A stretch of 53,262 nt of DNA from an uncultured Gammaproteobacteria bacterium (GCA_913065025.1 CAJYAP010000004.1:1-53262), one strand, 5' to 3'; shown: positions 19,392-52,882, numbered from the stretch's first letter. Made by a program: numbers and translations. Notes: a model not told the origin generated them from the sequence alone.

Positions 19392-19408
19392 TGGCACAAA
19401 ATATGCAT
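19392..19408 (+). promoter_or_regulatory. sigma54 (-24/-12) promoter of glnA
   Basis: TGGCAC-AAAAT-ATGCAT, GG-N10-GC, about 50 nt before the glnA ATG; AGGAG SD at 19446-19450. Confidence 0.8.
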
Positions 19409-19456
19409 GTTTTAAAAAACAAAATGAAAATAATGTAATACACATAGGAGCGAATA

Positions 19457-20863
19457 ATGTCAGATATAATGAAAACAATAAAGGAGAATGACGTCAAATT
19501 TGTTGATTTGAGATTCACTGATACAAAAGGCAAAGAACAACATGTAACAATTCCCGTAGGCGCAGTAGAAGAATCTTTATTCGAAGATGGTAAAATGTTT
19601 GATGGTTCTTCGATTGCTGGCTGGAAAGCAATTAATGAGTCAGATATGATCCTTATGCCAGATGTTGACACAGCAGTTATGGACCCATTCTTCAGTGATC
19701 CAACTTTAACAGTTAGGTGTAATATTCTTGAGCCTAGTACTGGAGAAGGATACAGTCGTGACCCAAGATCTATTGCTAATAGAGCTGAAAAATATTTAGT
19801 AGACTCCGGTATCGCAGACACAGCTTATTTTGGCCCTGAGCCAGAATTTTTTATATTTGATTCAGTTACTTATGGTAATGAAATCGGAGAATCGTTTTAT
19901 AGAGTTGAGTCAGAAGAGGGTTGTTTTAGCTCTGGAGAACAATACGAAGATGGAAACACTGGTCATAGACCAGGGGTTAAAGGGGGTTATTTTCCTGTGC
20001 CACCAGTTGATTCTTTCCAAGATATTCGTTCTGCAATGTGCAACGTTCTCGAAGAAATGGGTGTAGAAACTGAAGTGCATCATCATGAAGTTGCAACTGC
20101 TGGACAATGTGAAATCGCAACCAAGTTCGACACAATGGTAAAAAGAGCAGATAAAAACCAAGTGATGAAATATGTAATACACAATGTGGCTCATAATTAT
20201 GGAAAAACAGCTACATTTATGCCTAAACCTATTATTAATGATAATGGTAATGGTATGCACGTACATCAATCATTATTTCTAAATGGAGAAAATTTATTTT
20301 TAGGTAATAAATATGGTGGTTTATCAAAACTTGCCCTACATTATATCGGTGGAATTATAAAACATGCAAAAGCTATAAATGCTTTCTCTAACGCAGCTAC
20401 AAATAGTTATAAAAGACTAGTGCCAGGTTTTGAAGCTCCAACTATTTTAACTTATTCTGCTAAAAATAGATCTGCAAGCATAAGAATTCCTTATGTTGCG
20501 AATGACAAAGCTAGACGAATTGAAGTAAGGTTCCCTGACGCATGTGGAAATCCTTATCTTACATTTACAGCGCTAATGATGGCTGGGCTTGATGGGATTA
20601 AAAATCAAATAGATCCAGGACCAAATATGGATATTGATCTGTTTGATGATCTTAGTCCCGAAGACGAAGCTAAAATTCCTCATGTATGTTCTTCTCTTGA
20701 TGAAGCTCTGAAGTCTTTAGATGAAGACAGAGAATTTTTAAAAGCAGGTGGCGTTTTTGATGACGATACAATAGATGCATATATAGCTCTTAAGATGGAG
20801 GAAGTGCAAGCTTTTCAAGCCAATACTCATCCACTAGAGTTTGAAATGTACTATAGCTTATAA
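19457..20863 (+). CDS. glnA: Glutamine synthetase type I
   Basis: [58 protein letters not shown]. Confidence 0.99.
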
Positions 20864-20874
20864 TAGTTACTTTA

Positions 20875-20897
20875 TAACGCTCTTTTACAGGGCGTTA
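20875..20897 (+). terminator. Stem-loop after glnA (weak terminator or stabiliser)
   Basis: TAACGCTCT-TTTAC-AGGGCGTTA, a 9-bp stem with one G-U; short U tail. Confidence 0.55.
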
Positions 20898-20907
20898 CTT
20901 CAAAAAA

Positions 20908-20952
20908 ATAATGCACTTTTATAGTGCATTATCAATTGCCTTACTATACAAT
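20908..20952 (+). promoter_or_regulatory. NtrC box overlapping the -35 of a putative sigma70 ntrB promoter
   Basis: ATAATGCAC-TTTTATA-GTGCATTAT (TGCAC-N7-GTGCA with palindromic flanks); GTGCAT-17 nt-TACAAT. Confidence 0.82.
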
Positions 20953-20958
20953 TAGTAA

Positions 20959-22056
20959 ATGACTCATTTTACAAATAAGAATAATAAAGAAATAAAAGCA
21001 TTTAATTTTATAGAAATGGACTTTAATATCTTAGATAATATTTCGACATCTATAATAATCACCAATAAATTTATGGAGATTGTTCATGTCAACGCTTCAG
21101 GCGAAAATTTTCTTAGTAATAGTAAAGCTAACCTAACAAATGTAAAAATTTCTGAGATTTTTGCAAAAAAAAATAATATTATTCTAAGCCAGGTTTATGA
21201 TGCTATTGCTTTAAATCAGTCATCGGTTTCTAGGGATATTGAGGTTTCTTTAAGGAATAAATCCAAGGAGAGGTTGGACTGCAATGTTCAGACTATTTTT
21301 GCAAATGAAGAAAAGTATGTCTTGCTTGAGATTAATACAGTTCAAAGGCAAAAAAATATAATAAATAATTCAGATTATATGGATAGAAGTAACGCAACTC
21401 AAATGATAACGAGATCTATAGCCCATGAGATAAAAAATCCATTAGGTGGCATAAAAGGTGCTGCACAGTTACTCGAAAATGAAATAAGTGAAGAACATAA
21501 AGATTACATAGAAATAATTATTAATGAAGTTGATAGATTAAAAAATTATATAGATAAAATGGTTGGCCCAAGAAATGAACCTGCTTTTAAATCTGTAAAT
21601 ATCCATTCAATAATTGAAAGAGTGCTACAAATATCTAGCGCCAAAATAAAAATAAAAAATACTTTCAAGAGGGACTTCGACCCTAGCATCCCAGATGTAA
21701 TTGTTGATGAAGATATGATAATCCAGTCTTTATTAAATATAGTAAAAAACGCTCAAGAAGCTATTACGACTAAAGGTGAAATTGAATTAAAAACAAGAGT
21801 TGAGAGAAATTATACTATAAATTCTATAAAGCATAAGTTGGTAGTCATAATAAGCGTTATTGATAGTGGTATTGGAGTTAGTGATGAAATTAAAAATAAA
21901 TTATTTTTACCTTTGGTAACTGATAAAACACAAGGTTCTGGTTTAGGACTTTCTATATCTCAAAGATTAGTATCTCTCAACAATGGGATAATCGTTTTTG
22001 AAGAATTCCAAAATAAAACAATATTTAAAATTATTTTACCTATTGAGAATCATTAA
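20959..22056 (+). CDS. ntrB: Nitrogen regulation sensor kinase (PAS + HisKA + HATPase); start may be 21016 (MDFNIL)
   Basis: AHEIKNPLGGIKGAAQLL H-box, FKRDFDPSIPD, QGSGLGL; glnA-ntrB-ntrC order. Confidence 0.95.
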   Translation: MTHFTNKNNKEIKAFNFIEMDFNILDNISTSIIITNKFMEIVHVNASGENFLSNSKANLTNVKISEIFAKKNNIILSQVYDAIALNQSSVSRDIEVSLRNKSKERLDCNVQTIFANEEKYVLLEINTVQRQKNIINNSDYMDRSNATQMITRSIAHEIKNPLGGIKGAAQLLENEISEEHKDYIEIIINEVDRLKNYIDKMVGPRNEPAFKSVNIHSIIERVLQISSAKIKIKNTFKRDFDPSIPDVIVDEDMIIQSLLNIVKNAQEAITTKGEIELKTRVERNYTINSIKHKLVVIISVIDSGIGVSDEIKNKLFLPLVTDKTQGSGLGLSISQRLVSLNNGIIVFEEFQNKTIFKIILPIENH

Positions 22057-22057
22057 T

Positions 22058-23455
22058 ATGGATAACTTAAAAAATATATTCGTTATAGACGATGATAAAT
22101 CAATAAGATGGGTCTTAGAAAAAGCTCTTACAAAAAAAGGTTTTAATGTTTTTTGTTATAAAACATCTGAAGATATGATTAATGCCTTAGAAGAGGTGGT
22201 GCCAAATGTTATTATTTCTGATGTAAGAATGCCGGGGCTTAGCGGAATTGATTTATTAGACAAAATTAAAAGAGAATACCCGTCTATACCTATAATTATA
22301 ATGACTGCATTTTCAGATATGGAAACTACTGTAGATTCTTTAAAAAAAGGGGCATATGACTTCGTAACCAAACCATTTGATATTAATGAAGTTACTGCTC
22401 TTATTGATAAAGCCCATAAAAATTCATTCAATAATAATTTTTCAGAAAAAATAGAACCGTCTAAAAATGTTAGTAAAATTATTGGTACTTCAGAGTCCAT
22501 GCAAACTATATATAAATCTATTGGAAAAATTGCTCAAACTGATATCGAGGTTTTAATACTTGGAGAAACCGGCACAGGTAAAGAGTTAATAGCCAAAGCA
22601 ATACATGATAATAGTGCTAGAAAAGATAAGCCTTTCATTGCCATTAATACTGGTGCAATACCAACTGAGCTTCTTGAATCAGAATTATTTGGGCATGAAA
22701 AAGGATCTTTTACAGGTGCTTATAATCAAAGAATTGGTAGATTTGAGCAAGCCTCAGATGGAACCTTGTTTTTAGATGAAATTGGAGATATGCCACTGGA
22801 TGTCCAAACAAGATTATTAAGAGTATTACAAGAAGGGGAATTCTTCAGAGTTGGTGGTTCAAAGTCAATTAAAGTAAAAACTAGAATCATCACCGCGACA
22901 CATAAAAATCTTAAATCGCTTGTGAATAAAGAAATTTTTAGAGAAGACCTTTTACATAGAATAAATGCCGTTAAAATTGAATTGCCAAATTTAAAAAACA
23001 GGAAGTCTGATATTATCAATTTAGCAGAGCACTTTATGCGATATTATTCTCAAGAATATAAATCCTCATTAAAAGTTCTAAATGACGATGTCAAAAAGGT
23101 TTTTCTAAAATATGATTGGCCAGGGAATATTAGAGAGCTACAAAACGTATGTAAGTATCTTTCCGTAATGTCCGTAAATTCAGATGTAGTAGTTGCAGAT
23201 TTACCAAGGGAATTAGTGAATGAAGGAATAGATTCTAATATCAATATAAATTGGGAAGAGGTATTCGAATCATGGATTCTTAGTGAGTTTAATAAAGATT
23301 CTAAAGATATTTCAAAAAATATTGATAGTATTTATGAATCTATACTTATTAAGTCTGCATTAACGTTATCTGAGGGAAATAAAACGGAAGCAGCGAGAAT
23401 ATTAGGTTGGGGAAGAAATACGATATCAAATAAAATGAAATCTATTGAGAAATAA
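22058..23455 (+). CDS. ntrC: Nitrogen regulation response regulator, sigma54 activator
   Basis: SDVRMPG receiver, GETGTGKE, ELFGHEKGSFTGA, WPGNIRELQN, AARILGWGRNT HTH. Start moved to MDNL at 22058. Confidence 0.96.
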   Translation: MDNLKNIFVIDDDKSIRWVLEKALTKKGFNVFCYKTSEDMINALEEVVPNVIISDVRMPGLSGIDLLDKIKREYPSIPIIIMTAFSDMETTVDSLKKGAYDFVTKPFDINEVTALIDKAHKNSFNNNFSEKIEPSKNVSKIIGTSESMQTIYKSIGKIAQTDIEVLILGETGTGKELIAKAIHDNSARKDKPFIAINTGAIPTELLESELFGHEKGSFTGAYNQRIGRFEQASDGTLFLDEIGDMPLDVQTRLLRVLQEGEFFRVGGSKSIKVKTRIITATHKNLKSLVNKEIFREDLLHRINAVKIELPNLKNRKSDIINLAEHFMRYYSQEYKSSLKVLNDDVKKVFLKYDWPGNIRELQNVCKYLSVMSVNSDVVVADLPRELVNEGIDSNININWEEVFESWILSEFNKDSKDISKNIDSIYESILIKSALTLSEGNKTEAARILGWGRNTISNKMKSIEK

Positions 23456-23463
23456 AATAGAGA

Positions 23464-24516
23464 TTATTTACAATCTACACCAATTGCTTCTGATATGTTT
23501 TTATAACCGCTCTTCTTAATCAAAATACTTAACTCTTTGTTAATTTTGTCTGCTACATAAGGGCCTTCGTAAACTAATGATGTGTATAGTTGTAATAAAG
23601 ATGCCCCAGATTTAATTTTTTCAAAAGCTGTAGAACCATTATTTATTCCACCAGCGCCTATTATTGGGATATTTCTACCTAAGCGCAGATAAAATTTCTT
23701 TATAACTTTATTAGATATGTCATTTAAAGGCTCCCCTGAAAGACCGCCTCTTTCAACTCTGTATTTACTAACTAAATTATTTTTATTACTTGTAGTTGTA
23801 TTAGTTAATATTACACCGTCAATAGATTTTTCTATAAAAATATCACATAGATTTTTTATTTCTTTGTCATCGATATCTGGTGATATTTTAAATAAAATCG
23901 GAACTTTGGAATTATGCTCTCTACTTCTTTTTTTTATCATATCTATTAACCGAATAATTTTCTCATCTTCATGCTGCATCCGCAAATTCGGTGTATTTGG
24001 AGATGAGATATTAATTGTTATATATGATGCTAACTCAGAAAATTGATCAAAACATAATAAATAATCATCTGACTTAGTCGCATTATCTTTATTAGGCCCA
24101 ATATTTATCCCGCAAATTCCTTTTGGTGGGTTATTTTTTATTCTTTCCTTTATTATTTTCATGCCTTCATTAGGAAAACCCAATCTGTTAATTATTGCTT
24201 TATCATCTATCAACCTAAATACTCTTGGTTTTGGATTTCCTTCTTGAGGTTTAGGAGTTATTGTCCCTACTTCTGTAAAACCAAAACCTAATTTATAAAC
24301 TTGATTGTAGACTTCTGCATTTTTATCAAACCCAGCAGCTAAACCTATAGGACTCTTAAAGTCTAAGTTAAATATTTTTTGTGATAAATTTTCATATGAA
24401 CTATTCGAAAATAAATTTAACCTTATAGAGTATTTTTTTATATATGATATTGCTAATTTATGAGCTAGCTCAGAATCAGTTCTGTTTAAAAAAAATTTAA
24501 ATATTCTATATAGCAT
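23464..24516 (-). CDS. pyrD: Dihydroorotate dehydrogenase (quinone, class 2)
   Basis: GLAAGFDKN, EVGTITPKPQ.GNPKPR, NISSPNTPNLR, KISPD, GGLSG. Confidence 0.96.
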   Translation of the reverse strand: MLYRIFKFFLNRTDSELAHKLAISYIKKYSIRLNLFSNSSYENLSQKIFNLDFKSPIGLAAGFDKNAEVYNQVYKLGFGFTEVGTITPKPQEGNPKPRVFRLIDDKAIINRLGFPNEGMKIIKERIKNNPPKGICGINIGPNKDNATKSDDYLLCFDQFSELASYITINISSPNTPNLRMQHEDEKIIRLIDMIKKRSREHNSKVPILFKISPDIDDKEIKNLCDIFIEKSIDGVILTNTTTSNKNNLVSKYRVERGGLSGEPLNDISNKVIKKFYLRLGRNIPIIGAGGINNGSTAFEKIKSGASLLQLYTSLVYEGPYVADKINKELSILIKKSGYKNISEAIGVDCK

Positions 24517-24551
24517 CTTATGCGCTTGATTTAATTTTAATATTTGCGAAA

Positions 24552-25511
24552 TTAAACAAATTCTTTTTTTTGTTCTCTTATTAGTAAATCGCTAACTGCT
24601 TTTTCAGGATTTAAACCTTTATTTATTATATCAAAAACCTTACTGCAAATAGGTAAGTTTAATGCGTATTTTTTAATTAAGATATTTAGTCCCTCAGATG
24701 CATAAATCCCTTCAACGACATTTCCTATCTTTTTTTCCGCATCAGGTACTGATAGACCTTTTGCTATTTCTAAACCAAACCTTCTATTTCTCGATAAATT
24801 ATCGTTGGATGTCAACACAAGATCTCCTAAACCACTTAATCCATAGATAGTTTTTTCGTCACATTTCAATATTTCACCAAGAATTTTAATCTCAACCATT
24901 CCTCTAGAAATTAATGCTGCTTTAGCATTTGCTCCTAAATCAAGACCATCAGATATTCCAACTGCAACTGATAGTATATTTTTCATGGCACCCCCTAATT
25001 GACATCCAATCATATCATTTGAAGCATACACCCTAAAATATTTACTATGAAACATTTCTGTAAAAATTTTTAATACACTGTCATTTTCTGAAGCAATTGT
25101 TACAGCAGTAGGTTTATTTTGCATAACCTCTGCTGCAAAAGATGGGCCCGATAGAACTGCGACATTTTCTGAAGGTGTATACTGGCTTATTATTTGTGAC
25201 GGAAATAAACCTAATTTTGAATCTATTCCTTTGCAAGCTAAAATAATTGGCTCGTGATAATTATTATTTTTTACTAATTCTCCAATATCAACTAACGACT
25301 TTACCGGCGTAGCGATTACAATTGGAGAATCATGACTGAAAATATCTGTTTTGTCGTTTGTTTGCAGAATATTTTTACTATTAAATTTGTATTTTTTATC
25401 TTCAGGATTTCTAGAATAGATTAGAACTTTTTTCTTGTTAATTGAAAGAGTGTGGGCAAGTGCTTTACCCCATGAGCCGGAGCCTACAATTGCTACATCA
25501 AAAGATGACAT
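24552..25511 (-). CDS. gpsA: Glycerol-3-phosphate dehydrogenase (NAD(P)+)
   Basis: GSGSWG, ACKG, LSGPSFA, GGAMKN, GLGDLVLT, SRNRRFG. Confidence 0.96.
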   Translation of the reverse strand: MSSFDVAIVGSGSWGKALAHTLSINKKKVLIYSRNPEDKKYKFNSKNILQTNDKTDIFSHDSPIVIATPVKSLVDIGELVKNNNYHEPIILACKGIDSKLGLFPSQIISQYTPSENVAVLSGPSFAAEVMQNKPTAVTIASENDSVLKIFTEMFHSKYFRVYASNDMIGCQLGGAMKNILSVAVGISDGLDLGANAKAALISRGMVEIKILGEILKCDEKTIYGLSGLGDLVLTSNDNLSRNRRFGLEIAKGLSVPDAEKKIGNVVEGIYASEGLNILIKKYALNLPICSKVFDIINKGLNPEKAVSDLLIREQKKEFV

Positions 25512-25537
25512 GTATATTTTGTTGCATCATTATATTT

Positions 25538-25786
25538 TTATTCATTACTATCAAGACCTCCCTCCATATCTAATTCAACTAAATCATCATATCCACCAAC
25601 ATGCTTGTCATCTATAAAAATCTGAGGCACTGATTGTCGTCCATTAGATAATTCTAGCATCTGCTGAAACATTTCATTGTTTTCATCAACTTTGTATTCA
25701 ATATAATCAATCTTTCTTTTTTCTAAGAGCATTTTTGCTCTAACACAGTATGGACATATTCTTGTTGAGTATACTATTGCTTTCAT
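25538..25786 (-). CDS. grxC: Glutaredoxin 3
   Basis: CPYC, SVPQIFI, GGYDDL. Confidence 0.95.
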   Translation of the reverse strand: MKAIVYSTRICPYCVRAKMLLEKRKIDYIEYKVDENNEMFQQMLELSNGRQSVPQIFIDDKHVGGYDDLVELDMEGGLDSNE

Positions 25787-25788
25787 AT

Positions 25789-26211
25789 TTAATTTTTAAC
25801 AATGGGAAGATTATCTGAAATCCAAGCTTCAAAACCTCCCTTCATAGAGTAAACTTCACTGAAATTATTTTTGGTTAGTATATTTGATATTGTTGCTGAC
25901 TTAATACCTGTTTTACAATAAACAATTGTTGGCTTGTTAGCATATTTTTTAATAGAATCTAGACTGCTTTCAACTGATGAAAAAGTAATATGTTTTGAAT
26001 TTTTTATTATACCTTTGGTCAGCTCTGTGCTCTCTCTTACATCAAGAATAAATGCATCATTATTAATTAAGAAAACTGCATCCTGTGGTGTAATATCTTT
26101 AAATTTTTGAGTTATCGTTTTATATTCATTAAAGATGATGAATGACAAAATGACAAAAAATAAAATAAATAAAACTGGATTATTTAAAATAAAATTGTAA
26201 TAGGCGTCCAT
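25789..26211 (-). CDS. Membrane-anchored rhodanese (YibN-like)
   Basis: N-terminal TM, ILDVRE, IVYCKTG active-site Cys, MKGGFEAW. Confidence 0.88.
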   Translation of the reverse strand: MDAYYNFILNNPVLFILFFVILSFIIFNEYKTITQKFKDITPQDAVFLINNDAFILDVRESTELTKGIIKNSKHITFSSVESSLDSIKKYANKPTIVYCKTGIKSATISNILTKNNFSEVYSMKGGFEAWISDNLPIVKN

Positions 26212-26226
26212 AGTAATTTTTTTCTT

Positions 26227-26556
26227 TTACTTCCCTGAAGAACAAAAAACTTCTCTCATCATTTCTAATAACTTTAAAGTTCTTTCGTCACTAACTCTAT
26301 AGAATACTTTATTGGCTTCTTTTCTAGTTTCTAATACACCTTTATCTTTTAGTATGCCAAGGTGCTGAGAAATATTGCTTTGAGACGTTCCAACTGTATC
26401 AACGATATCCTGAACACTAAATTCAGAATCACCTAAAATACATAATATTTTTAGTCTTAAAGGATGTGACATGGCTTTTATAGAACGCGAGGCTCTTTCT
26501 ATGTCTTCCTGTGTTACATCACTGTGGTCTACTGGTTGCCCTGCGACTTCTGCCAT
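26227..26556 (-). CDS. ArsR/SmtB repressor, BigR/SqrR/YgaV-like
   Basis: HPLRLKILCIL, SQSNISQHL HTH, EVFCS; two-Cys pattern. Confidence 0.88.
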   Translation of the reverse strand: MAEVAGQPVDHSDVTQEDIERASRSIKAMSHPLRLKILCILGDSEFSVQDIVDTVGTSQSNISQHLGILKDKGVLETRKEANKVFYRVSDERTLKLLEMMREVFCSSGK

Positions 26557-26640
26557 AAAACTTTCCTCTTATATATTCTTGTTATTATAAACTTTAATTT
26601 ATAGTATCATTTAATCTCATGTTACCAATCAATATTAGAT

Positions 26641-27786: not shown

Positions 27787-27809
27787 TGAAATTCTAATAC
27801 TATAGTGAT

Positions 27810-29111
27810 ATGAAAGTTTTCAAATACAAAAATGTTTTAATTATATTCGCATTAACATTTGCTATTATTACTATGTTTTACTTCAAAAATAGTAGTAGCG
27901 CTTATGCATCCAAAACAAGTCTTCCTCTTAATCAATTGCAAGCTTTCTCTGAGGTATATTTGAAAATAAAACAAAATTATGTTCAAGATATAACTGATAA
28001 GGAGTTATTTGATAACGCAATTAAAGGAATGCTTGAGGGTCTTGACCCGCATTCAACTTTTTTAAATGAAAAAGATTTTAAAGATCTTCAAATAGGAACC
28101 AAAGGTGAATTTGGAGGCTTGGGCATAGAAGTAACAATGGAAGATGGTTTTGTTAAAGTTATAACGCCGATTGATGATACTCCAGCCTATAAAGCTGGTG
28201 TTAAATCTGGAGACCTAATAATAGAGATAGACGCAAAGCCAGTTAAAGGGTTATCTCTTAATCAGGCTGTAGATTTAATGAGAGGAAAAGTTGGTAGCCC
28301 AATTTTGCTAACAATTGCAAGAACAGGGGAAAATGGACCGATAGAAATTAAAATCGTCAGAGCTAAAATTAAGGTTAAAAGTGTAAAATATGAGATTATT
28401 GATGATAATTATGGATATATAAGAATTTCTAGCTTTCAAAATAAAACTGGGAATAATTTATATGACGCAATATCTAATTTAAAAAAGGATGCAAAAGGGA
28501 ACATAAAAGGTTTCGTAATAGATATGAGAAACAACCCTGGTGGAGTTCTTGGTGCAGCAGTTGATGTAAGTGATGCTTTTATAAAAGGTAAGAAGAAACT
28601 AGTTTTTACTAAAGGGAAAACTGAAAATGCAGTATATGAATTCACTTCAAATAATACTGATCTAGCTGAAGGGAAACCCATAGTTGTATTAATAAATGGT
28701 GGCTCAGCTTCAGCATCTGAAATTGTGGCAGGTGCTTTACAAGATCATAAAAGAGCAATAATTATGGGAACGCAGTCTTTTGGAAAAGGGTCTGTTCAAA
28801 CTATATTGCCGATTACATCTAAAACTGCAGTAAAAATAACTACAGCTAGATATTACACTCCTAACGGAAGATCTATTCAAGCTAAAGGTATTACACCAGA
28901 TATCATTGTGAAAGATTTAGAATTGAGCTCACTAAATAAGAATAAAATGATAAAAGAGTCTGACTTAAAGGGCCACTTAAAAAATACAGATAAGAAAAAT
29001 AAAGACGGTGAGCCGCAAGCTCAGAATAAAAAACTCGAAAATGACTACCAATTATCAGAGGCTATAAATCTATTAAAAGGCTTAAATATATTGTCTTTAC
29101 GAAAAAAATAA
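27810..29111 (+). CDS. ctpA: Carboxy-terminal processing protease (S41)
   Basis: LDPHS, GLGIEV PDZ, DMRNNPGG, SASASEIV, QSFGKGSVQ, TTARYYTP. Confidence 0.93.
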   Translation: MKVFKYKNVLIIFALTFAIITMFYFKNSSSAYASKTSLPLNQLQAFSEVYLKIKQNYVQDITDKELFDNAIKGMLEGLDPHSTFLNEKDFKDLQIGTKGEFGGLGIEVTMEDGFVKVITPIDDTPAYKAGVKSGDLIIEIDAKPVKGLSLNQAVDLMRGKVGSPILLTIARTGENGPIEIKIVRAKIKVKSVKYEIIDDNYGYIRISSFQNKTGNNLYDAISNLKKDAKGNIKGFVIDMRNNPGGVLGAAVDVSDAFIKGKKKLVFTKGKTENAVYEFTSNNTDLAEGKPIVVLINGGSASASEIVAGALQDHKRAIIMGTQSFGKGSVQTILPITSKTAVKITTARYYTPNGRSIQAKGITPDIIVKDLELSSLNKNKMIKESDLKGHLKNTDKKNKDGEPQAQNKKLENDYQLSEAINLLKGLNILSLRKK

Positions 29112-29146
29112 ATTAAATCAATAATTTATTAATCTTAAAATTAATC

Positions 29147-29182
29147 TTGAGTGTTGAAGAAACCGTTGTATAATAACGCGCC
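29147..29182 (+). promoter_or_regulatory. Putative sigma70 promoter of dksA with Zur-like box and GC-rich discriminator
   Basis: TTGAGT-16 nt-TATAAT; CGTTGT-ATA-ATAACG near-palindrome at 29164-29178; ACGCGCC after the -10. Confidence 0.5.
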
Positions 29183-43968: not shown

Positions 43969-44028
43969 CCTTTGTTAATGGTTTAGTTTTACTATAAAAA
44001 ATAAAAGATCTATTTAATCCATACTTCC

Positions 44029-44987: not shown

Positions 44988-45011
44988 TCTTTTTCCTTCT
45001 TATTTATTGAA

Positions 45012-46010
45012 TTAATCTTTAATCATCTTAAATAATTCTTTTATTGAATTTATATTTCTTTCTCGGTTGAAAACATATTTAGCATGAATTTCACTACCAG
45101 CTAAACTATCCAATTCAATTCCCCATAAGCCTTTAATTTCATTTGGTAACATTGAGTACCTAATATCAATAATCCGATTTTTGTATTTGTTAGATAATGC
45201 AACGTATCCTCCAGAAAACCATCTAAACCTTTCAATATCTTTTGCTTGCTGGCTAGATAAATCGAGCCATGGAAATGACTCACTGATATTCAATTTATTG
45301 ATTTTTGAGCCCTCATATATTTTTGTTCGTAATCCTACTTTTACGGCGTCAACATAATAAATATTATTATTACTATATATTGATTTCCACACTATTAAAT
45401 TTGCAAAACTTGGCTTAACATCCACTAGCGCGTTGGTATGTCCTCTTGATAATGCAAGATTTGACGCTAGATCTTTCGCTCTTTCCTTCTGAACTACCCC
45501 AAATATACAGTAACCAATAATCCAACATAAAGATATTCGAGTATAAATCTTTTTCTTTTTTAAAGCGCCAATTAATATTAAAAGAAATATTGGTAATGTA
45601 AATATTGGGTCTATTATTGATATAGTATTCCAAGATATTCTTGCATCACTGAAAGGCCATAACAGCTGGGTTCCGTATGATGTGCAAGAGTCTAGCAAAC
45701 CGTGGGTTCCATACCCTAATGTACAATAAAGATATACACTCTTAAATTCTATTTCGCGACGCTTTGCAAATAAATAATAAAAAATTAATGCGCATATTAA
45801 GCCGCCTATAGGAATAAATATTAAAGAGTGTGTAAACTGACGATGATATTCTAAAGCTAATAAAGGATCATGATTAGATCTAATAAAAATATCTAGATCT
45901 GGAGCAAGTCCTGAAAGAAAACCGAATAATGTTGCTATTATTATATTTTTCTTGTTAGCAGATTGTTGTGCAACTGCTGAACCAAGAACTCCCTGCGTCA
46001 ATGGGTCCAT
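45012..46010 (-). CDS. Membrane-bound metal-dependent hydrolase (YdjM/YbcI-like)
   Basis: MDPLTQ..LG, PDLD, HRQFTHS, THGLLD..TSYGT, IIDP; start at MDPL. Confidence 0.85.
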   Translation of the reverse strand: MDPLTQGVLGSAVAQQSANKKNIIIATLFGFLSGLAPDLDIFIRSNHDPLLALEYHRQFTHSLIFIPIGGLICALIFYYLFAKRREIEFKSVYLYCTLGYGTHGLLDSCTSYGTQLLWPFSDARISWNTISIIDPIFTLPIFLLILIGALKKKKIYTRISLCWIIGYCIFGVVQKERAKDLASNLALSRGHTNALVDVKPSFANLIVWKSIYSNNNIYYVDAVKVGLRTKIYEGSKINKLNISESFPWLDLSSQQAKDIERFRWFSGGYVALSNKYKNRIIDIRYSMLPNEIKGLWGIELDSLAGSEIHAKYVFNRERNINSIKELFKMIKD

Positions 46011-46031
46011 GTATTTATTTCCCAAATTACT

Positions 46032-46712
46032 TTAATTTAAAAACTTAATTTCTGATAAATCAATTCTTATTTTTTCTTTTCCTTTTTTCATAATTCTTGT
46101 TGATACCATTAAATTTTTATGCTCTTTTGAGAAAAAGAAAATATTCTTTTTATTTCCTGATATATATTCTGCAGAATAACCATGGTACTGCAATTTATTT
46201 ATCTTAATAGAAGCATTTTCTTTAAAATTATAATTGTAGATCTTAATATTCTTTTTTGACAATACATTATATTTTGTATCAAAATTAGGGTAAGTTCTCA
46301 TTAATAATAAAAGTAGAGAAATGGGGTCATATATTATTTCATCAGTATTAAGATTTATAGGTTCCGTATTTTTCTTTATTATTTCAACTTTATTTGCATT
46401 AAATATTGCTTGGTAAGACTCTTCGCCATCTTTATACATATATTTTTTTGGTAAAATAATGTTTTGGTTTATTTCAACATGAGATATTTCTTCTCTATAC
46501 CCTCTATTTGCTAGTTCTGCTAAAAAATTACCATCATATACAGTGCTAATTTTAATTTTATTATTTTCAGTATTAATTTTAAGCGTCATTTTGCCAGCTT
46601 CCATATTCTTATAGTAAAAAATATATTTTGCTTCAACATTTTTTATAATGTTTTCATTTGATAACGAATTTTGACATAGAAACACAAGCGCAATGATTAT
46701 AAGTTTTTTCAT
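46032..46712 (-). CDS. Exported hypothetical protein, DUF3108-like
   Basis: Signal peptide; beta-rich; Y.EIS, P.KY, YDP.S.L pattern. Confidence 0.5.
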   Translation of the reverse strand: MKKLIIIALVFLCQNSLSNENIIKNVEAKYIFYYKNMEAGKMTLKINTENNKIKISTVYDGNFLAELANRGYREEISHVEINQNIILPKKYMYKDGEESYQAIFNANKVEIIKKNTEPINLNTDEIIYDPISLLLLLMRTYPNFDTKYNVLSKKNIKIYNYNFKENASIKINKLQYHGYSAEYISGNKKNIFFFSKEHKNLMVSTRIMKKGKEKIRIDLSEIKFLN

Positions 46713-46727
46713 AATGATTTCTCATTT

Positions 46728-47246
46728 TTATTGTCTATCAATATTTTTCTGTAATATAAAATTCTTTAGCATTTGCTTTTTCATAGCTTCGGAGAGAATT
46801 TTCTTAAGCTCTATACATGTGTAAGCATTTATGACATTTTTATCATATAAGCTAACTTTAAGATTTTTTTTATCAAATTTTAATTTGACTTCATTGTTTA
46901 TAATTTCTTCGCTAAAGTCTTTTGTAGAATAAAAACTTCCCATATTGAAAGAATTTTTTATTATATTATCTTCAATATAAATACTGTTTCCGTTATCCCA
47001 TTTATCACTTTTATATATTAAACCTATTTTATTTTCAGATTGAATCAAACTTATATCTTTATTAGCTTTATAGTTTTTTCTCTGGTCGGTACTAGGTTTT
47101 AAATTACATGAATAAAATTCACCTTTTGAAAATGAATTTAATATATTATTTAAATTTTTTTTATCTGTATACTCATATTGTTCAGTACAGCCTAATATAC
47201 TCATTAATAAAATTGAATAAATTATAATTTTTGTATTCCTTATCAT
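46728..47246 (-). CDS. Hypothetical lipoprotein
   Basis: Lipobox ILLMSILG-C after a basic N-terminus. Confidence 0.6.
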   Translation of the reverse strand: MIRNTKIIIYSILLMSILGCTEQYEYTDKKNLNNILNSFSKGEFYSCNLKPSTDQRKNYKANKDISLIQSENKIGLIYKSDKWDNGNSIYIEDNIIKNSFNMGSFYSTKDFSEEIINNEVKLKFDKKNLKVSLYDKNVINAYTCIELKKILSEAMKKQMLKNFILQKNIDRQ

Positions 47247-47267
47247 TATATAATCCTTTTTTAATTT

Positions 47268-47816
47268 TCATTCATCAAAAGATATCTCTTTAACATATAT
47301 TTTTGCTTTATAATCTTTACCATAAGCAACAATGCCAATTGATTTTATATTTTTAGAATTTATTGTACTTGCTTGAAATGCTCCTGATTTTTTGAATTTT
47401 TTTATTGGTAAAATGAATTCTTTATATTTTTCTTCAACAGTAAAGCTATGTTGATAATACTGCCAGGGTAATATTGTCCCTGTCGTTCTCAAATGTACGA
47501 AATATTTTTCATTATTTCCTTTTGCAATAATTTTTATATTATTTACTCCGTCCAATGTAATTCCTTTCATATTTCTTCTGAACTGTATAAACCCACCATT
47601 ATTTTCTGTAGAGACATTACCTGATAAATGTGCAATTGACTGACCCTCTATAATTGAAAAATCAATTGAACCTGTTGAAACACCGCCCATAACATTATCT
47701 GATATAAATTTCCATTGAGATGGGTCTTGAAAATTATCTTTATAAAGGCTTCCAGCAAAAGTTTTTTGATTCATAATTATTATACAAAATATCAGAAGTA
47801 ATATTATTTTTTTCAT
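47268..47816 (-). CDS. CIA30/NDUFAF1 family protein with signal peptide
   Basis: W.FISDNVMGGVS, G.VSTENNGGF, WQYY, FILP...FK. Confidence 0.88.
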   Translation of the reverse strand: MKKIILLLIFCIIIMNQKTFAGSLYKDNFQDPSQWKFISDNVMGGVSTGSIDFSIIEGQSIAHLSGNVSTENNGGFIQFRRNMKGITLDGVNNIKIIAKGNNEKYFVHLRTTGTILPWQYYQHSFTVEEKYKEFILPIKKFKKSGAFQASTINSKNIKSIGIVAYGKDYKAKIYVKEISFDE

Positions 47817-47856
47817 GTCATCAATATAGCAAAGTATTAATACTTCTTACAGTAGC

Positions 47857-47873
47857 TTGGCATGTATATTGCA
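47857..47873 (+). promoter_or_regulatory. sigma54 (-24/-12) promoter upstream of the glucosylglycerate cluster
   Basis: TTGGCATG-TATA-TTGCA, one mismatch to TGGCACG-N4-TTGCW. Confidence 0.75.
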
Positions 47874-47889
47874 TTTACAAGGATGTAGT

Positions 47890-47997
47890 ATGAATTCTAT
47901 AGCTGAGATTCGTCCTTTTTTCCTATTTCCCCTCTCAGCCTATAGAATTCTTCTTTCAGCATATTCTATTTATTATTTCTTGCGAAGAAGATACTAA
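47890..47997 (+). CDS. Putative 35-aa hydrophobic peptide (MNSIAEIRPFFLFPLSAYRILLSAYSIYYFLRRRY)
   Basis: AAGGA SD 6 nt before ATG; overlaps the hairpin, so it may be non-coding. Confidence 0.35.
   Translation: MNSIAEIRPFFLFPLSAYRILLSAYSIYYFLRRRY
47892..47950 (+). other. Long inverted repeat/hairpin: 17-bp stem with 1-nt bulge and 24-nt pyrimidine loop
   Basis: GAATTCTATAGCTGAGA ... TCTCAGCCTATAGAATTC. Confidence 0.8.
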
Positions 47998-48045
47998 TGA
48001 TTAATATGATAGAATAAAAAATTACTAGCTAACAATATAAACTTA

Positions 48046-48888
48046 ATGACATATAAAATTAAAAATTTATGCGCTCTAATTTTTACAGATCTTGATGCAT
48101 CGTTCCTTAATAAAAGTAATTTTTCTTTTGGTAATAACATGAATATTACAAAAAAAATTTTCAAGGATGACAATTTTGTAATATTTAATACTAGTAAAAC
48201 ATTTATTGAATTAAATTATTTTTTCCAACAACAATCATACGATTTACCATTTATATGTGAAAATGGGGGCGGAATATATTCTCCTAAAAGATACTTCAAC
48301 AATGCTGCTCATACAAGAGATGGATATAATGTTATCTTCGAGTCAACCAAAATAAATAAAAAAATAAGTAAAATTAAGAGAGCTATTCTTCAAATATTTG
48401 GAGAACATTGTACTTTTTATAACGACCTCAACGATTTTGAGAAACAAAAATTCTCTGGTCTTAATGAGAAAGAATTAATGAATGCTTCGCGCAGAGAATT
48501 TACTGAGTTAATAATATGGAAATCAGATTATGAAAATCTTATTAAATTTAATGATTATTTGCATACTCATGACCTGAAAATTATTAAAGGGGGGAGATTT
48601 CACCATATATCAAATAATATAAATAAAGGAATATCCATGCTTAGACTTGTCAATGAATATAAAAAATATTACCCTAGTAAAAAATTTGTCACTATTGCAA
48701 TTGGGGATAGTGAGAACGACTTAGAGATGCTTAACTGCGTTGACTATCCTTGTTTAGTTAAAAGTAACGATAGTCAAACTTTTATAAAAAATATTAAATC
48801 TAGTAATTTATTTATTAGCGATAGAGAAGCGCCTGAAGGCTGGGAAGATTGTGTAAATCAGGCATTCGAGCAGATAAGGAGGCAATAA
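48046..48888 (+). CDS. Glucosyl/mannosyl-3-phosphoglycerate phosphatase (HAD-IIB)
   Basis: IFTDLD, NTSKT, ICENGG, RREFTE, GGRF.H, GDSENDLEML. Confidence 0.9.
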   Translation: MTYKIKNLCALIFTDLDASFLNKSNFSFGNNMNITKKIFKDDNFVIFNTSKTFIELNYFFQQQSYDLPFICENGGGIYSPKRYFNNAAHTRDGYNVIFESTKINKKISKIKRAILQIFGEHCTFYNDLNDFEKQKFSGLNEKELMNASRREFTELIIWKSDYENLIKFNDYLHTHDLKIIKGGRFHHISNNINKGISMLRLVNEYKKYYPSKKFVTIAIGDSENDLEMLNCVDYPCLVKSNDSQTFIKNIKSSNLFISDREAPEGWEDCVNQAFEQIRRQ

Positions 48889-50102
48889 TGGCTGATTTTC
48901 ATCAAAATGGTGTAGTAAGTACACTGCATAATATTTCAAATAGGTCAGCAGAAGATCTTGAAAAGGAGCTTATTGTCTTTTCAAAAAAAAGACCAATTGA
49001 TTTAATTTTGCCATCTTTATATTCAGAAATAGAGGGTCCTGCTTTAAAAAATATTATTAATATATTATCTAAAGTTAAATATTTGAATCACATCACAATT
49101 GGATTAGACAAAGCTGATAATAAACAATTTATAAAGGCAAAAGAATTTTTTTCTAATTTAAATCAGCCACATTCTGTGATCTGGAATGATGGCCCACGTA
49201 TGAAAGCCCTTGATAACGAATTAAATAAAAAAGGGTTGGCGCCTGGTGAATCAGGTAAAGGAAAAAACGTATGGTATTGCATGGGCTATGTACTTGCACG
49301 TGATGAAGCAAGATCTATCGCGTTGCATGATTGCGATATTTTAACTTATGATAAAGAATTGCTAGCTAGGCTGGTTTATCCAGTTGCAAACCCTCTTTTT
49401 AATTACGAATTTTGTAAAGGATACTATCCAAGAGTAGGTAACAATAAACTAAATGGAAGAGTGACTAGACTACTAGTAACTCCATTACTAAAAGCACTCA
49501 AAAAGGTTTTAGGCCCAAGAGAATATATAGAATTTATTGATGTTTTTAGATATCCATTAGCTGGAGAATTTTCTTTTAGAAGTAGAATGCTTAAGGAATT
49601 AAGAATCCCAAGCGACTGGGGCCTTGAAATAGGAATCTTGTCTGAGATGCAGCGAAATCACGCTCAAAATAGAATATGCCAAGTTGATATTGCAAAAATA
49701 TATGACCACAAACATCAAGAAATTTCTTTAAAAGATAAAGAAAAAGGACTATCTAAAATGTCTATTGATATTTCAAAAACATTAATTAGAAAACTTGCTG
49801 CTCAAGGAGATACTTTTACATCAAATAACTTAAGGACAATTAAAGCGACCTACTACAGAACAGCTTTGGATCTTCTTGAAATATACCATAACGACGCAAA
49901 GCTAAACGGTTTAGATATAAATATTAATGATGAAGAAATAATGATTGAAATGTTTGCAAACAATATTATCATCGCTGGACAGGAGTTTTTAAATAAACCA
50001 AATCATAATCCATTAACACCGAATTGGAATAGAGTTCAAAATACTTTACCCGACTTTAAAGATAAGTTTATCCAAGCAGTCGACGAAGATTCAAAAATTT
50101 AG
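48888..50102 (+). CDS. gpgS: Glucosyl-3-phosphoglycerate synthase-type glycosyltransferase
   Basis: MADFHQNG..TLH, LILPSLYSE, GKGKNVW, HDCDI, RYPLAGEF, DWGLEIG; AGGAGG SD. Confidence 0.85.
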   Translation: MADFHQNGVVSTLHNISNRSAEDLEKELIVFSKKRPIDLILPSLYSEIEGPALKNIINILSKVKYLNHITIGLDKADNKQFIKAKEFFSNLNQPHSVIWNDGPRMKALDNELNKKGLAPGESGKGKNVWYCMGYVLARDEARSIALHDCDILTYDKELLARLVYPVANPLFNYEFCKGYYPRVGNNKLNGRVTRLLVTPLLKALKKVLGPREYIEFIDVFRYPLAGEFSFRSRMLKELRIPSDWGLEIGILSEMQRNHAQNRICQVDIAKIYDHKHQEISLKDKEKGLSKMSIDISKTLIRKLAAQGDTFTSNNLRTIKATYYRTALDLLEIYHNDAKLNGLDININDEEIMIEMFANNIIIAGQEFLNKPNHNPLTPNWNRVQNTLPDFKDKFIQAVDEDSKI

Positions 50103-50121
50103 TTATAATAAGAGAATAAAG

Positions 50122-51870
50122 ATGCTTGATAGTAAAAGTTTTTCAATAAGATTAGAACAACATCTAGTAAAAATATATGGTGGAGTAAAAACAACAAAAG
50201 AGATAAAACAAGTTTCCAATGATTTGTTAGTGTTTATTGAATCTAAATTTAGTAAGAATCCTCCAAAATTTTTAAATAACGTAAGTAAATGGTCTGAAAA
50301 AGATACTATTTTAATATCATATCCAAATTCTATAGTTGAAAACAAAAGAAAGCCTTTATCTACATTAAAAAAATTTTTAGATAAACATTGTATGAATATG
50401 GTTTCAATTATTCATATTTTACCTTTTTTCCCCTCAAGCTCAGACCAAGGTTTTTCAGTTAAAGATTATTATTCTGTTGATAAAAATTTTGGTTCTTGGG
50501 ATGACATTAAGAGAATAAGTCAAAAATTTTCAGTCATGGGTGATGTAGTATTAAATCATGGCTCATCAAAAAGTAAATGGTTTGAAAACTTCTTAAATGG
50601 AAGTGGCCCAGGCTCAAAATATTTTTTAACTGCTGATAAGAATCTTGATTTATCAACGGTCACTAGGCCAAGAACGAGTGATTTACTTTCAAAAGTAGAT
50701 ACTGCAAATGGTGAAAAATATGTTTGGTGTACTTTTAGCGAAGACCAAGTTGATTATGATTTTGAAAATTTCGAAGTTTTAAAAGAATTTATATCTATAA
50801 TAACTTTTTATCTAGAAAACGGTATATCAGTTTTTAGATTTGATGCTGTTGCATTTTTATGGAAAAAAATTGGCACAGGCTGTGTAAATCTTCCAGAAAC
50901 ACATGAAATAGTCCGGCTTTTTAGAACAATATTAGACTATTTGGCGCCTAGTGCGATATTGGTAACGGAAACAAACACCCCAGCAAGAGAGAACGTCACT
51001 TATTTTGGTAACGCAAATGAGGCTCATTGGATCTATAATTTTTCGTTACCTCCAATTTTAATATATACGGTTCTTAAAGGCGATTCTTCGTATCTCGAAA
51101 AATTAACCATGAGTCTGCCGCCTGCACAATTAGGAGCATCATATCTCAATTTTGTTGCTTCCCATGATGGCATTGGACTTAGGCCTATTGAAGGAATGAT
51201 GAGTAAAAGTGAAATAAATAAGCTTATTAATAAAATGAAAAATAATGGTGGTGAAATTTCATATAGAATAAATAAAGATAATAAGGAATCTCCTTATGAA
51301 ATTAATATTTCACTTTTTGATGCTATGCAGGAGACACTAAATGGAAATGAAGATTTCCATTTTGATAGATTTTTATGCATACATATAATTATGCTATCTC
51401 TTGAGGGTGTGCCTGCTTTTTATATTCACAGCCTATTCGGAACAAAAAATGATCAAAATCTTTATTCCAAAACTAATAAAAAAAGAGACCTAAACAGACA
51501 TGTTTTTGAAATTGATAACCTAAAGAAAATTATTGACGATGAAAATAATCATGGAAGTTTTATTTTTTATAAATTAAAAAATCTAATTGCTATTAGAAAA
51601 AAGCAAACAGCCTTCCATCCAAATGCTGTGCAATTTACGCTTCATTTAGGTAAAAACTTTTATGGTGTATGGAGACAAAGTTTAGACAAATCTCAAAGCA
51701 TTTTTTGCATAACAAATGTAACAGATGAAAATAGAGAATTCTCTTTAATGGACATTAACTTAATAGGTTTTGATCAGTGGAGAGATTTAATTAGCAATAA
51801 AACTTTATCTGATATTCATTCAAAAATTACATTAAAACCTTACCAAACAATTTGGGTTAGTAATAAATGA
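50122..51870 (+). CDS. GH13_18 phosphorylase, probably glucosylglycerate phosphorylase
   Basis: HILPFFP, RFDAVAFLWK nucleophile, TETN acid/base, ASHDGIG, YEIN loop. Confidence 0.85.
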   Translation: MLDSKSFSIRLEQHLVKIYGGVKTTKEIKQVSNDLLVFIESKFSKNPPKFLNNVSKWSEKDTILISYPNSIVENKRKPLSTLKKFLDKHCMNMVSIIHILPFFPSSSDQGFSVKDYYSVDKNFGSWDDIKRISQKFSVMGDVVLNHGSSKSKWFENFLNGSGPGSKYFLTADKNLDLSTVTRPRTSDLLSKVDTANGEKYVWCTFSEDQVDYDFENFEVLKEFISIITFYLENGISVFRFDAVAFLWKKIGTGCVNLPETHEIVRLFRTILDYLAPSAILVTETNTPARENVTYFGNANEAHWIYNFSLPPILIYTVLKGDSSYLEKLTMSLPPAQLGASYLNFVASHDGIGLRPIEGMMSKSEINKLINKMKNNGGEISYRINKDNKESPYEINISLFDAMQETLNGNEDFHFDRFLCIHIIMLSLEGVPAFYIHSLFGTKNDQNLYSKTNKKRDLNRHVFEIDNLKKIIDDENNHGSFIFYKLKNLIAIRKKQTAFHPNAVQFTLHLGKNFYGVWRQSLDKSQSIFCITNVTDENREFSLMDINLIGFDQWRDLISNKTLSDIHSKITLKPYQTIWVSNK

Positions 51871-51890
51871 TATATATTGGAATTATCAAT

Positions 51891-52337
51891 TTATAATTTT
51901 CCACTAAGAATGTACTTTAATATCTGAAAAGCTTGTTGCTGACTTTTAACAACAGCTGATGCAGAAGCGTCAACTTCTTTAAGAGGATGTTGATGTTCGT
52001 CACCATGAATCACGATTATGGATTTATTTAGTGCTGCTGCATAACCGGTATCGAAAGCCGCATTCCATTGTTTGTATTTTTCACCAAATTTGACAATAAC
52101 CACATCACAATCTTCTAAAGATTTTTTTGTTCTTATAGCATTAATATTTGCCCCTTTATTATCCTTCCAAAAATTATTTTCTTCGTGTCCGAGGATTTCT
52201 ACACCACAATTATCTGATGCCTCATGATCTGTAACAGGTGATGTAAATGTAATATTTAACCCCTCATCATTGCATAGTTGAATAATTTCATCTCGCCAAT
52301 TAGAGTGTATTTCACCCGATAAATATACATTTAACAT
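51891..52337 (-). CDS. YtoQ family protein
   Basis: VYLSGEIH.NWR, PVTDH.ASD.CG, FGEKYKQWNAAFD, HPLKEVDA. Confidence 0.85.
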   Translation of the reverse strand: MLNVYLSGEIHSNWRDEIIQLCNDEGLNITFTSPVTDHEASDNCGVEILGHEENNFWKDNKGANINAIRTKKSLEDCDVVIVKFGEKYKQWNAAFDTGYAAALNKSIIVIHGDEHQHPLKEVDASASAVVKSQQQAFQILKYILSGKL

Positions 52338-52425
52338 ATTATTTTCTCCTCTTTTTTTTATCGAAACATTATATATGAATTTATAATTATGAATAGTTTA
52401 TTATTTTTTAAGTTAAGTTATTTCT

Positions 52426-52443
52426 TTGGCATAATATATGCAT
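52426..52443 (+). promoter_or_regulatory. sigma54-like promoter upstream of the DUF2721 gene
   Basis: TTGGCATAATATATGCAT, GG-N10-GC; predicted +1 falls at about the ATG. Confidence 0.6.
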
Positions 52444-52453
52444 AGTAAAAAAT

Positions 52454-52882
52454 ATGAATATTGATAATAACTTTTTCTGGTACCCTGCATTACTTTTCCC
52501 TGCAATACCAATCATGCTTCTAGTTTTTACAAATAAATATACTGCATTAGCTATGCTAATTAGAAAATTGCATATCATGTCTCAAAATAATGAAATAAAT
52601 AATTTATCAGCTGAGAGAATTCAAATATTAGCTAGCAGAATGCAATTACTAAGATGGATGCAAACTTTCTCCAGCATATCTTTTCTATTTAATTTAGTTA
52701 CTATTTTTTGCGGATTTGTTGGTCTTCCAAATTATGCATTAATTTTTTTTATAATTTCTGTTATTTTTTTAATATTAGCAATGTCACTTTTTATAATTGA
52801 ATCACAACAATCACATTATGCACTTAGTCTGCATATTCAAGACTTGGAAGCATATAATAAAGATAAAATTTCTACTAACTAG
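52454..52882 (+). CDS. DUF2721 family membrane protein
   Basis: PALLFPAIP..LL..TN.Y.AL..LIR.LH, I..L..R..L.R.MQ. Confidence 0.75.
   Translation: MNIDNNFFWYPALLFPAIPIMLLVFTNKYTALAMLIRKLHIMSQNNEINNLSAERIQILASRMQLLRWMQTFSSISFLFNLVTIFCGFVGLPNYALIFFIISVIFLILAMSLFIIESQQSHYALSLHIQDLEAYNKDKISTN

Follow-up and report, generated by a model that had tools for sequence, protein, structure and literature searches.

Three intergenic spacers in a stretch of DNA of 53,262 nucleotides from an uncultured Gammaproteobacteria bacterium (GCA_913065025.1, CAJYAP010000004.1:1-53262; hereafter the window) carry the motif TGGCA-N7-TGC, and they raise the question of whether this bacterium runs a nitrogen regulon from sigma-54 promoters and, if so, with which regulators. 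A sequence-only reading of the window had proposed that nitrogen control would be exercised by transcription alone, without a visible NtrC enhancer, and with an RNA element in the place of protein-level regulation. The window is contig C4 of a 36-contig genome (0.98 Mb, ~30% GC), which we compared with a panel of 15 congener genomes of 0.7-1.2 Mb each, smaller subsets being used for individual gene counts. Our analysis makes it likely that all three are true sigma-54 promoters and belong to a small NtrB/NtrC regulon with a single activator, from which only the GlnE arm has been lost; the regulon is a classical NtrBC/sigma-54 system in reduced form and not a new kind of regulation. The three promoters, with their scores against the position weight matrix (PWM) described below, are the following.

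Positions 19392 to 19408, + strand: sigma-54 (-24/-12) promoter of glnA, TGGCACAAAATATGCAT, 27.3 bits; core match 19392-19406, 50 nt before glnA.
Positions 47858 to 47874, + strand: sigma-54 promoter of the glucosylglycerate (gpg) operon, TGGCATGTATATTGCAT, 23.5 bits; core match 47858-47872, 173 nt before gpgP.
Positions 52427 to 52443, + strand: sigma-54 promoter of a DUF2721 gene, TGGCATAATATATGCAT, 22.6 bits; core match 52427-52441, 12 nt before the gene.

Within the window TGGCA-N7-TGC occurs five times, always on the + strand, where shuffled sequences lead one to expect 0.82 and none of 100 shuffles reaches five. The three matches in spacers each face the next gene, as the sequence-only reading had described, and stand before glnA-ntrBC, gpgP-gpgS-GH13 and the DUF2721 gene; they score 22.6-27.3 bits, all read TGGCAY-N6-TGCAT, and have the GG and GC 10 nt apart in a TGGCAC-N5-TTGCW-like context, as is usual for sigma-54. 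The remaining two fall in coding sequence (21447, within ntrB, and 40744, within a minus-strand open reading frame, ORF) and both lack the TGCAT extension. When ORFs were called over the whole genome, giving a coding density of 95% and 52,046 nt of intergenic DNA, 25 matches were found, seven of them intergenic, against an intergenic expectation of 0.18 (analytic) to 0.23 (1000 shuffles, maximum 2). The probability per position, which had been put by hand at about 2e-6, was computed as 1.7e-6 per position per strand. All seven intergenic sites face a gene 12-173 nt downstream, and all seven extend to TGGCAY-N6-TGCAT, for which 0.012-0.014 sites are expected (maximum 1 in 1000 shuffles). Moreover, a PWM trained on congener sites recovers the same seven sites at 17.9-27.6 bits, the next candidate reaching 14.2 bits, and in shuffled sequence 0.07 sites are expected at 15 bits or above, so that the scan sets these seven sites apart from background; the training sites came from the congeners only and were themselves picked with TGGCAY-N6-TGCAT, which makes the core positions of this matrix partly circular.

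Could the motifs be chance matches, or an artefact of AT-rich composition? The core is short, and 18 of the 25 matches in the genome lie in coding sequence, as such an origin would have it. The intergenic excess is, however, 30- to 500-fold, and no shuffle attains the observed count; in the 15 congeners TGGCAY-N6-TGCAT occurs 88 times and the same pattern reversed not once, and the sites are kept before orthologous genes. The probability that we leave to chance is negligible, and enrichment, reversed control and conservation together refute it. For regulon membership each site was fetched with its flanks and the first downstream ORFs were clustered; the congeners carry 3-9 motif matches each, and the genome under study has seven promoters. 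The genes found behind the motif in the congener panel were these.

glnK, followed by amtB: motif upstream in 15 genomes.
Gcw_chp porin-like gene, situated some 1 kb before glnK: 14 sites, spread over 13 genomes.
glnA: 12 sites.
lpxC: 10 sites.
CP-ATP-grasp / gpg operon: 5 sites.
ppk2: 2 sites.
DUF2721 gene: 2 sites.
184-aa gene of no assigned family: 2 sites.
lapB: 1 site.

The other matches in the congeners lie inside coding sequence. Since the motif recurs before orthologous genes, the three window loci belong to a regulon that extends beyond them, made of a conserved core and species-specific accessories: as predicted from these sites, glnA(-ntrBC), the Gcw_chp porin-like gene, glnK-amtB and lpxC form its core in the genus, while gpgP-gpgS-GH13, ppk2-ppk1-ppx and the DUF2721 gene are accessory members in few species. 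Enrichment, conservation and the nature of the genes thus all support the earlier suggestion that the motifs are sigma-54 promoters of a nitrogen-related regulon.

At the glnA locus two features surround the promoter.

Positions 19290 to 19379, + strand: conserved block of ~90 nt upstream of the glnA promoter, near-invariant in an alignment of 12 congeners.
Positions 19457 to 20863, + strand: glnA, type I glutamine synthetase (GS); TIGR00653, 646 bits.

The GG and GC of the glnA promoter are unchanged across 12 congeners. In the adenylylation loop, comparison with the GS of Salmonella (1f1h, 2gls) showed that NLY-DLPPE is replaced by DLFDDLSPE, that is, one residue is inserted and Tyr397 is Phe (codon at 20642-20644). 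All 12 congeners with a readable loop have Phe at this position, and all eight relatives of the same order outside the genus have Tyr. A search for glnE (PF03710) found none in the 13 genus genomes searched (13/13), the same search being positive in same-order relatives and in three control genomes; the Tyr397 to Phe change thus coincides with the loss of glnE in the genus. The proposal that GS is non-adenylylatable is borne out to this extent, and the comparison supports a GS that would not be open to adenylylation at the canonical site. As for the block upstream, it contains two TTGAATT repeats ~42 nt apart; a consensus scan flagged no sigma-70 promoter in 19290-19379, and the block may house either a sigma-70 promoter or sites for regulators.

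The sensor and regulator genes follow glnA directly, with a spacer of their own.

Positions 20884 to 20912, + strand: sigma-70-like promoter, TTTACA-17-AATAAT, a consensus match only, which abuts the NtrC box.
Positions 20912 to 20928, no strand assigned: perfect NtrC box, TGCAC-N7-GTGCA, TGCACTTTTATAGTGCA, in the glnA-ntrB spacer.
Positions 20959 to 22056, + strand: ntrB (NRII) sensor kinase, with PAS, HisKA and HATPase domains; NF008293, 250 bits (cut-off 240).
Positions 22058 to 23455, + strand: ntrC (NRI); TIGR01818, 578 bits (cut-off 558.6).

In the case of ntrC the listed ORF opens at TTG 21998, and we took ATG 22058 as the likely start. The protein has a receiver domain with its Asp, an AAA+ domain and a Fis-type helix-turn-helix containing GWGRNT; its sigma-54 contact motif reads GSFTGA, the canonical form being GAFTGA. 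In every genus genome searched with PF00158 (Sigma54_activat) NtrC was the single strong match, and on this evidence it is the only predicted sigma-54 activator of the genome. A weak second PF00158 match in the present genome belongs to an AAA+ protein judged, by reading its sequence, to be of the CbbQ/NorQ type.

The sigma factor itself was traced to a contig end. On C9, after lptB, rpoN begins and runs for 319 codons (C9:38525-39483) until the contig end cuts it off, and its downstream neighbour in relatives is the gene with which contig C5 opens; nine of 12 congeners have rpoN at full length. An absence of rpoN, suggested when a search for its DNA-binding domain found none, was rejected as an artefact: the contig breaks within the gene, whose N-terminal two thirds stand at the end of C9. 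The genome further encodes GlnD (on C19; present in 11 of 12 congeners), AmtB, whose gene adjoins glnK, and two PII proteins, both with the T-loop Tyr51, one being GlnK and the other encoded beside a Kdo-transferase-like gene. With the genes for GlnD, PII with Tyr51, NtrB-NtrC and AmtB in place, the GlnD-PII-NtrB-NtrC cascade appears to have been retained, and so does control by GlnK-AmtB. Of the inventory by which the transcription-only proposal was to be checked, therefore, the missing glnE fits the proposal, whereas glnD, the two PII genes and amtB contradict it, and with ntrBC and rpoN encoded and NtrC boxes present, the proposal as a whole is not supported.

Canonical NtrC boxes stand at only two loci per genome. 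The one at 20912-20928 is the sole perfect TGCAC-N7-GTGCA in the genome, and among the matches listed a perfect or 9/10 box occupies the same place in the glnA-ntrB spacer of nine congeners. The glnK promoter has a 9/10 box 108 nt before it, which aligns in all 15 genomes. In a scan across the genus perfect boxes were met at these two loci, genome after genome. For the three window promoters the sequence-only reading stands, as the 300 nt before each of the glnA, gpg and DUF2721 promoters gave no box of 8/10 or better, and at glnA none of even 7/10; the genus-wide scan likewise found no canonical NtrC box at the gpg, DUF2721 and lpxC promoters. Its wider implication, that there is no NtrC enhancer logic at all, is contradicted by the boxes of the glnA-ntrB spacer and of the glnK promoter. 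The box at 20912-20928 is probably the autoregulatory site of ntrBC, to judge from its position, and possibly a remote enhancer of the glnA promoter, which lies 1.5 kb away, the box being downstream; the porin promoter likewise has a box ~0.9 kb downstream. NtrC sites can reportedly act at such distances and from downstream, as Reitzer and Magasanik are said to have found.

We next turn to the operon that the second window promoter heads. Its parts, from the transcript start onwards, are as follows.

Positions 47892 to 47950, + strand: hairpin with a stem of 17-18 bp and a CU-rich loop of 23 nt, ~8 nt past the predicted transcription start.
Positions 47951 to 48045, + strand: non-coding leader, the scar of a decayed cassette by comparison with G002, G009 and G012.
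Positions 48046 to 48888, + strand: gpgP, HAD-IIB phosphatase of the MPGP/GpgP family; TIGR01486, PF08282.
Positions 48849 to 50102, + strand: probable gpgS, glucosyl-3-phosphoglycerate synthase of the Methanococcoides type; NF040724.
Positions 50122 to 51870, + strand: GH13 sucrose-phosphorylase-like glucoside phosphorylase, by domain matches.

The solved structures nearest to the GH13 protein are sucrose and glucosylglycerol phosphorylases, and from its gene context it is a candidate glucosylglycerate phosphorylase. A predicted glucosylglycerate operon thus stands behind a sigma-54 promoter, in agreement with the earlier statement that a nitrogen-free osmolyte pathway is included. The operon is found in 4 of 13 genus genomes, and its promoter is kept in G002, G009, G012 and six metagenome contigs; the order phosphatase-synthase(-phosphorylase) is shared with congeners, Methylophaga, Cellvibrionales and other loci.

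Among species-representative genomes a scan brought up 44 gpgS loci. In at least nine of these, from other low-GC gammaproteobacterial genera, (C/T)GGCAT-N5-TTGCAT lies ~45 nt upstream of gpgP. In Methylophaga a TGGCAC-N5-CTGCT element heads the cluster and is preceded, at 62-65 nt, by an NtrC box that is perfect or 9/10, and another sigma-54-like element stands immediately before the gpg operon's fused first gene; gpg loci of Piscirickettsiaceae and Cellvibrionales also have sigma-54-like elements in the equivalent spacer. In the library of papers searched we found nothing joining glucosylglycerate with rpoN beyond two incidental mentions. We tentatively propose, with confidence a little short of even, that glucosylglycerate synthesis is a direct and conserved sigma-54/NtrC target across marine Gammaproteobacteria, and that in streamlined genomes it would form one tier of a two-tier NtrC response; the spread referred to here is this genus, several low-GC lineages, Methylophaga, Piscirickettsiaceae and Cellvibrionales.

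Two further observations were made at these loci. In other low-GC genera (L120-L129, L135 and L157, at ~3060-3125) the gpgP spacer often carries a second, divergent sigma-54-like element, facing a gene of 155 aa in which no Pfam match was found. In Methylophaga and Piscirickettsiaceae a palindrome resembling an NtrC box lies within the first gpg gene (L131:2351, L132:2357, L133:2351, L138:2345, L141:1978, L144:2366), 112 nt into the gene in the two loci measured; the half-sites are preserved, whereas the residues encoded there differ, and by its sequence the palindrome may be an intragenic enhancer.

The only candidate for an RNA element is the hairpin that follows the gpg promoter, and comparison with relatives revealed where it comes from. 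In G009, G012 and the metagenome contigs the Shine-Dalgarno sequence and ATG of a CP_ATPgrasp_2 gene come right after the hairpin, and two ORFs, the last with transglutaminase-core-like sequence, lie between this gene and gpgP. We read this cassette as a putative CP-ATP-grasp / alpha-E / transglutaminase triad, Pfam support being confined to the ATP-grasp gene. It is intact in G009 and G012, and G002 retains remnants of its head and tail (loci L072, L111, L091). From these remnants the long leader of gpgP is a deletion scar, and the hairpin is the inherited leader of the ATP-grasp operon. Among relatives the stem shows one compensatory pair and one G-U pair.

Several other explanations of the hairpin were tried and rejected. 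A 35-codon ORF over it (ATG 47890) has GTG, indels and a different reading in relatives, the stem being kept with compensatory change; a repeat element does not fit a single occurrence in the genome; and no known RNA family was found in the leader or at the regulon loci of the window, nothing in 47700-48150 matching Rfam better than E = 1. Over the whole window, Rfam covariance models at gathering thresholds gave a sole match, Rp_sR47 (Rickettsia sRNA47) at 28617-28839 on the - strand (78.9 bits), antisense within an ORF of 433 aa at 27810-29111; the match probably reflects a conserved coding region rather than a small RNA.

These data bear on the view that nitrogen control here is purely transcriptional, lacks NtrC enhancer logic, and has the RNA leader 47884-47991 as a substitute for protein-level regulation. 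The loss of glnE together with the Y397F change in GS speaks for it, as do the three window promoters devoid of a canonical upstream box and the stable hairpin after the gpg promoter. Against these stand the encoded GlnD, two PII proteins, AmtB and NtrBC, the boxes at the glnA-ntrB spacer and upstream of glnK, and the hairpin itself, which is single-copy, confined to four species, absent from glnA, ancestrally an ATP-grasp leader and without an Rfam family or a link to GS. We consider this view very improbable, and the role proposed for the RNA element is not supported.

The third window promoter, read here as a sigma-54 promoter like the other two, stands very near its gene.

Positions 52454 to 52882, + strand: DUF2721 membrane protein; PF11026, 86.5 bits.

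Between the end of the extended promoter and the ATG there are 10 nt, in which no Shine-Dalgarno sequence can be seen, and the ATG lies 13 nt after the GC of the -12 element. The predicted transcription start (52452-52454) and this spacing predict a messenger RNA that is probably leaderless. At the DUF2721 gene of G009 the gap between promoter and ATG is nearly identical (9 nt) although the promoter spacer differs. The DUF2721 family is uncharacterised (PMC12093963).

Outside the window, two further promoters of the regulon are of interest.

Contig C9, positions 2019 to 2035, - strand: sigma-54 promoter of lpxC, between ftsZ and lpxC; kept in 10 species, which differ in its spacer alone.
Contig C16, positions 4797 to 4813, + strand: sigma-54 promoter of ppk2, 75 nt before the gene; also present in G009.

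LapB regulates the turnover of LpxC in E. coli. The congener G021 also carries a sigma-54 promoter before lapB, and the lpxC and lapB promoters, as predicted, suggest a tie between lipid A synthesis and this regulon. After ppk2 come ORFs of 696 aa and 313 aa which, judged from reading their sequences alone, are PPK1-like and Ppx/GppA-like, and polyphosphate metabolism may thus be a member of the regulon. An intragenic antisense match, TGGCATAAAAGATGCAT, lies at C1:39635-39651 (- strand), near-identical sites occurring in three congeners; it may reflect coding constraint or be an intragenic sigma-54 site.

How firmly do the data support NtrC-activated promoters throughout? Box-less promoters were assigned to NtrC because it is the only activator in the genome, and several observations weigh against our reading. 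No NtrC site could be recognised in the 300 nt before the gpg, DUF2721, lpxC and ppk2 promoters, and the conserved block at 19290-19379 is accounted for neither by an NtrC box nor by a flagged promoter. The genome is 83% complete, so that some inventory statements lean on congeners. The annotation of the gpg operon stays below equivalog level: gpgP scores 160.5 bits against TIGR01486 (cut-off 164.75), and gpgS, matched over its full length by NF040724 (E = 4e-106), scores 355 bits against a cut-off of 700. Finally, G011 keeps TGGCAT-N6-TGCAT before glnA and glnK without rpoN or ntrBC. In this species (98% complete, 8 contigs; G011:C4:76800-80800) ntrB is gone and the last 92 codons of ntrC remain downstream of glnA, and rpoN is reduced to ~110 nt of remnants between lptB and mgtE (C2, ~50.6 kb). 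At least one species thus does without the whole sigma-54 module, whose loss the motif can outlast.

Such persistence, with the lack of boxes and the presence of the gpg and DUF2721 sites in only 2-4 species of the genus, is what one would expect if the gpg, DUF2721, lpxC and ppk2 sites bound sigma-54 holoenzyme without being activated by NtrC, as poised or silent sites, roadblocks or decaying relics; in E. coli many sigma-54 binding sites are reported to be intragenic and inactive (PMC4591121). All of these four sites in the present genome are, however, intergenic, correctly oriented and at promoter distance; the lpxC site is kept in 10 species with the spacer alone varying, and the gpg promoter is kept across genera and families, the Methylophaga element at the head of the cluster being paired with a perfect NtrC box. 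We regard non-productive binding as unlikely, and retain the reading of these sites as promoters of a one-activator NtrB/NtrC regulon.

A mechanism for this regulon can be outlined as follows. When glutamine is low, GlnD would uridylylate PII, NtrB would phosphorylate NtrC, and NtrC~P would remodel sigma-54 closed complexes, from which we infer nitrogen-responsive expression of the target genes. Streamlining would have removed the GlnE adenylylation arm only, with GlnK-AmtB and PII-NtrB control remaining at the protein level, and GS would be controlled by its synthesis together with whatever feedback inhibition has been retained. The boxes at the ntrB spacer and at glnK may serve as shared remote enhancers for the glnA (1.5 kb) and porin (0.9 kb) promoters, and the box-less gpg, DUF2721, lpxC and ppk2 promoters, if dependent on NtrC, may fire only when NtrC~P is abundant. 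The outcome would be a response in two tiers, first the scavenging of ammonium and then the sparing of nitrogen, the latter including the replacement of glutamate by nitrogen-free glucosylglycerate.

Much of this resembles the Ntr system of E. coli and Salmonella, which has the same order glnA-ntrB-ntrC, a sigma-54 promoter before glnA, and GlnD with two PII proteins. As at the enterobacterial glnLp, TGCAC-N7-GTGCA adjoins a sigma-70-like promoter in the glnA-ntrB spacer, and as at enterobacterial glnK-amtB, a sigma-54 promoter has an NtrC box ~100 nt upstream. The differences from the enterobacterial system are the lack of GlnE, the Phe at Tyr397 of GS, the lack of an NtrC box directly upstream of the glnA promoter, and an NtrC that, by its gene inventory, would be the sole sigma-54 activator for ~7 promoters. 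Unlike in E. coli, the predicted targets include lpxC, the gpg operon, ppk2-ppk1-ppx and the DUF2721 gene, none of which, to our knowledge, is known there as an Ntr target. SAR11 ('Candidatus Pelagibacter ubique') has a streamlined marine genome and a nitrogen response independent of PII. It shares with the present organism a very small, AT-rich marine genome and a reduced nitrogen-regulatory network; in contrast to SAR11, two PII proteins, GlnD, NtrBC and sigma-54 are kept here and only GlnE is lost, G011 having also lost rpoN and ntrBC.

Glucosylglycerate accumulates upon nitrogen deprivation (PMC5381378). The closest parallel to the present operon is the glucosylglycerate of nitrogen-limited marine cyanobacteria (Prochlorococcus, Synechococcus) and mycobacteria, the synthesis genes standing here behind a promoter of the nitrogen type. 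The nitrogen regulators of cyanobacteria and mycobacteria are NtcA or GlnR, whereas in our case the link would be sigma-54/NtrC. A response of glucosylglycerate to nitrogen deprivation is also known in Dickeya, and Behrends et al. 2012 reportedly document its accumulation under such conditions.

Taken as a whole, the genome offers a near-minimal version of the textbook Ntr system in an abundant uncultured marine bacterium, a probable sulfur oxidiser, with one predicted activator, two strong enhancers and some seven promoters. Visible too is an order of streamlining, in which GlnE and the adenylylatable Tyr were lost genus-wide and rpoN/ntrBC in one species, while GlnD, PII and AmtB were kept. 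DUF2721, lpxC and the polyphosphate genes are placed in a context of nitrogen stress, and gpg transcripts become a possible marker of nitrogen stress in ocean metatranscriptomes. The recurrent link between sigma-54 and gpg is the most useful new lead, as it makes the exchange of glutamate for glucosylglycerate testable at promoters; if true, it would be the missing genetic switch by which glutamate is swapped for a nitrogen-free anionic osmolyte under nitrogen limitation.

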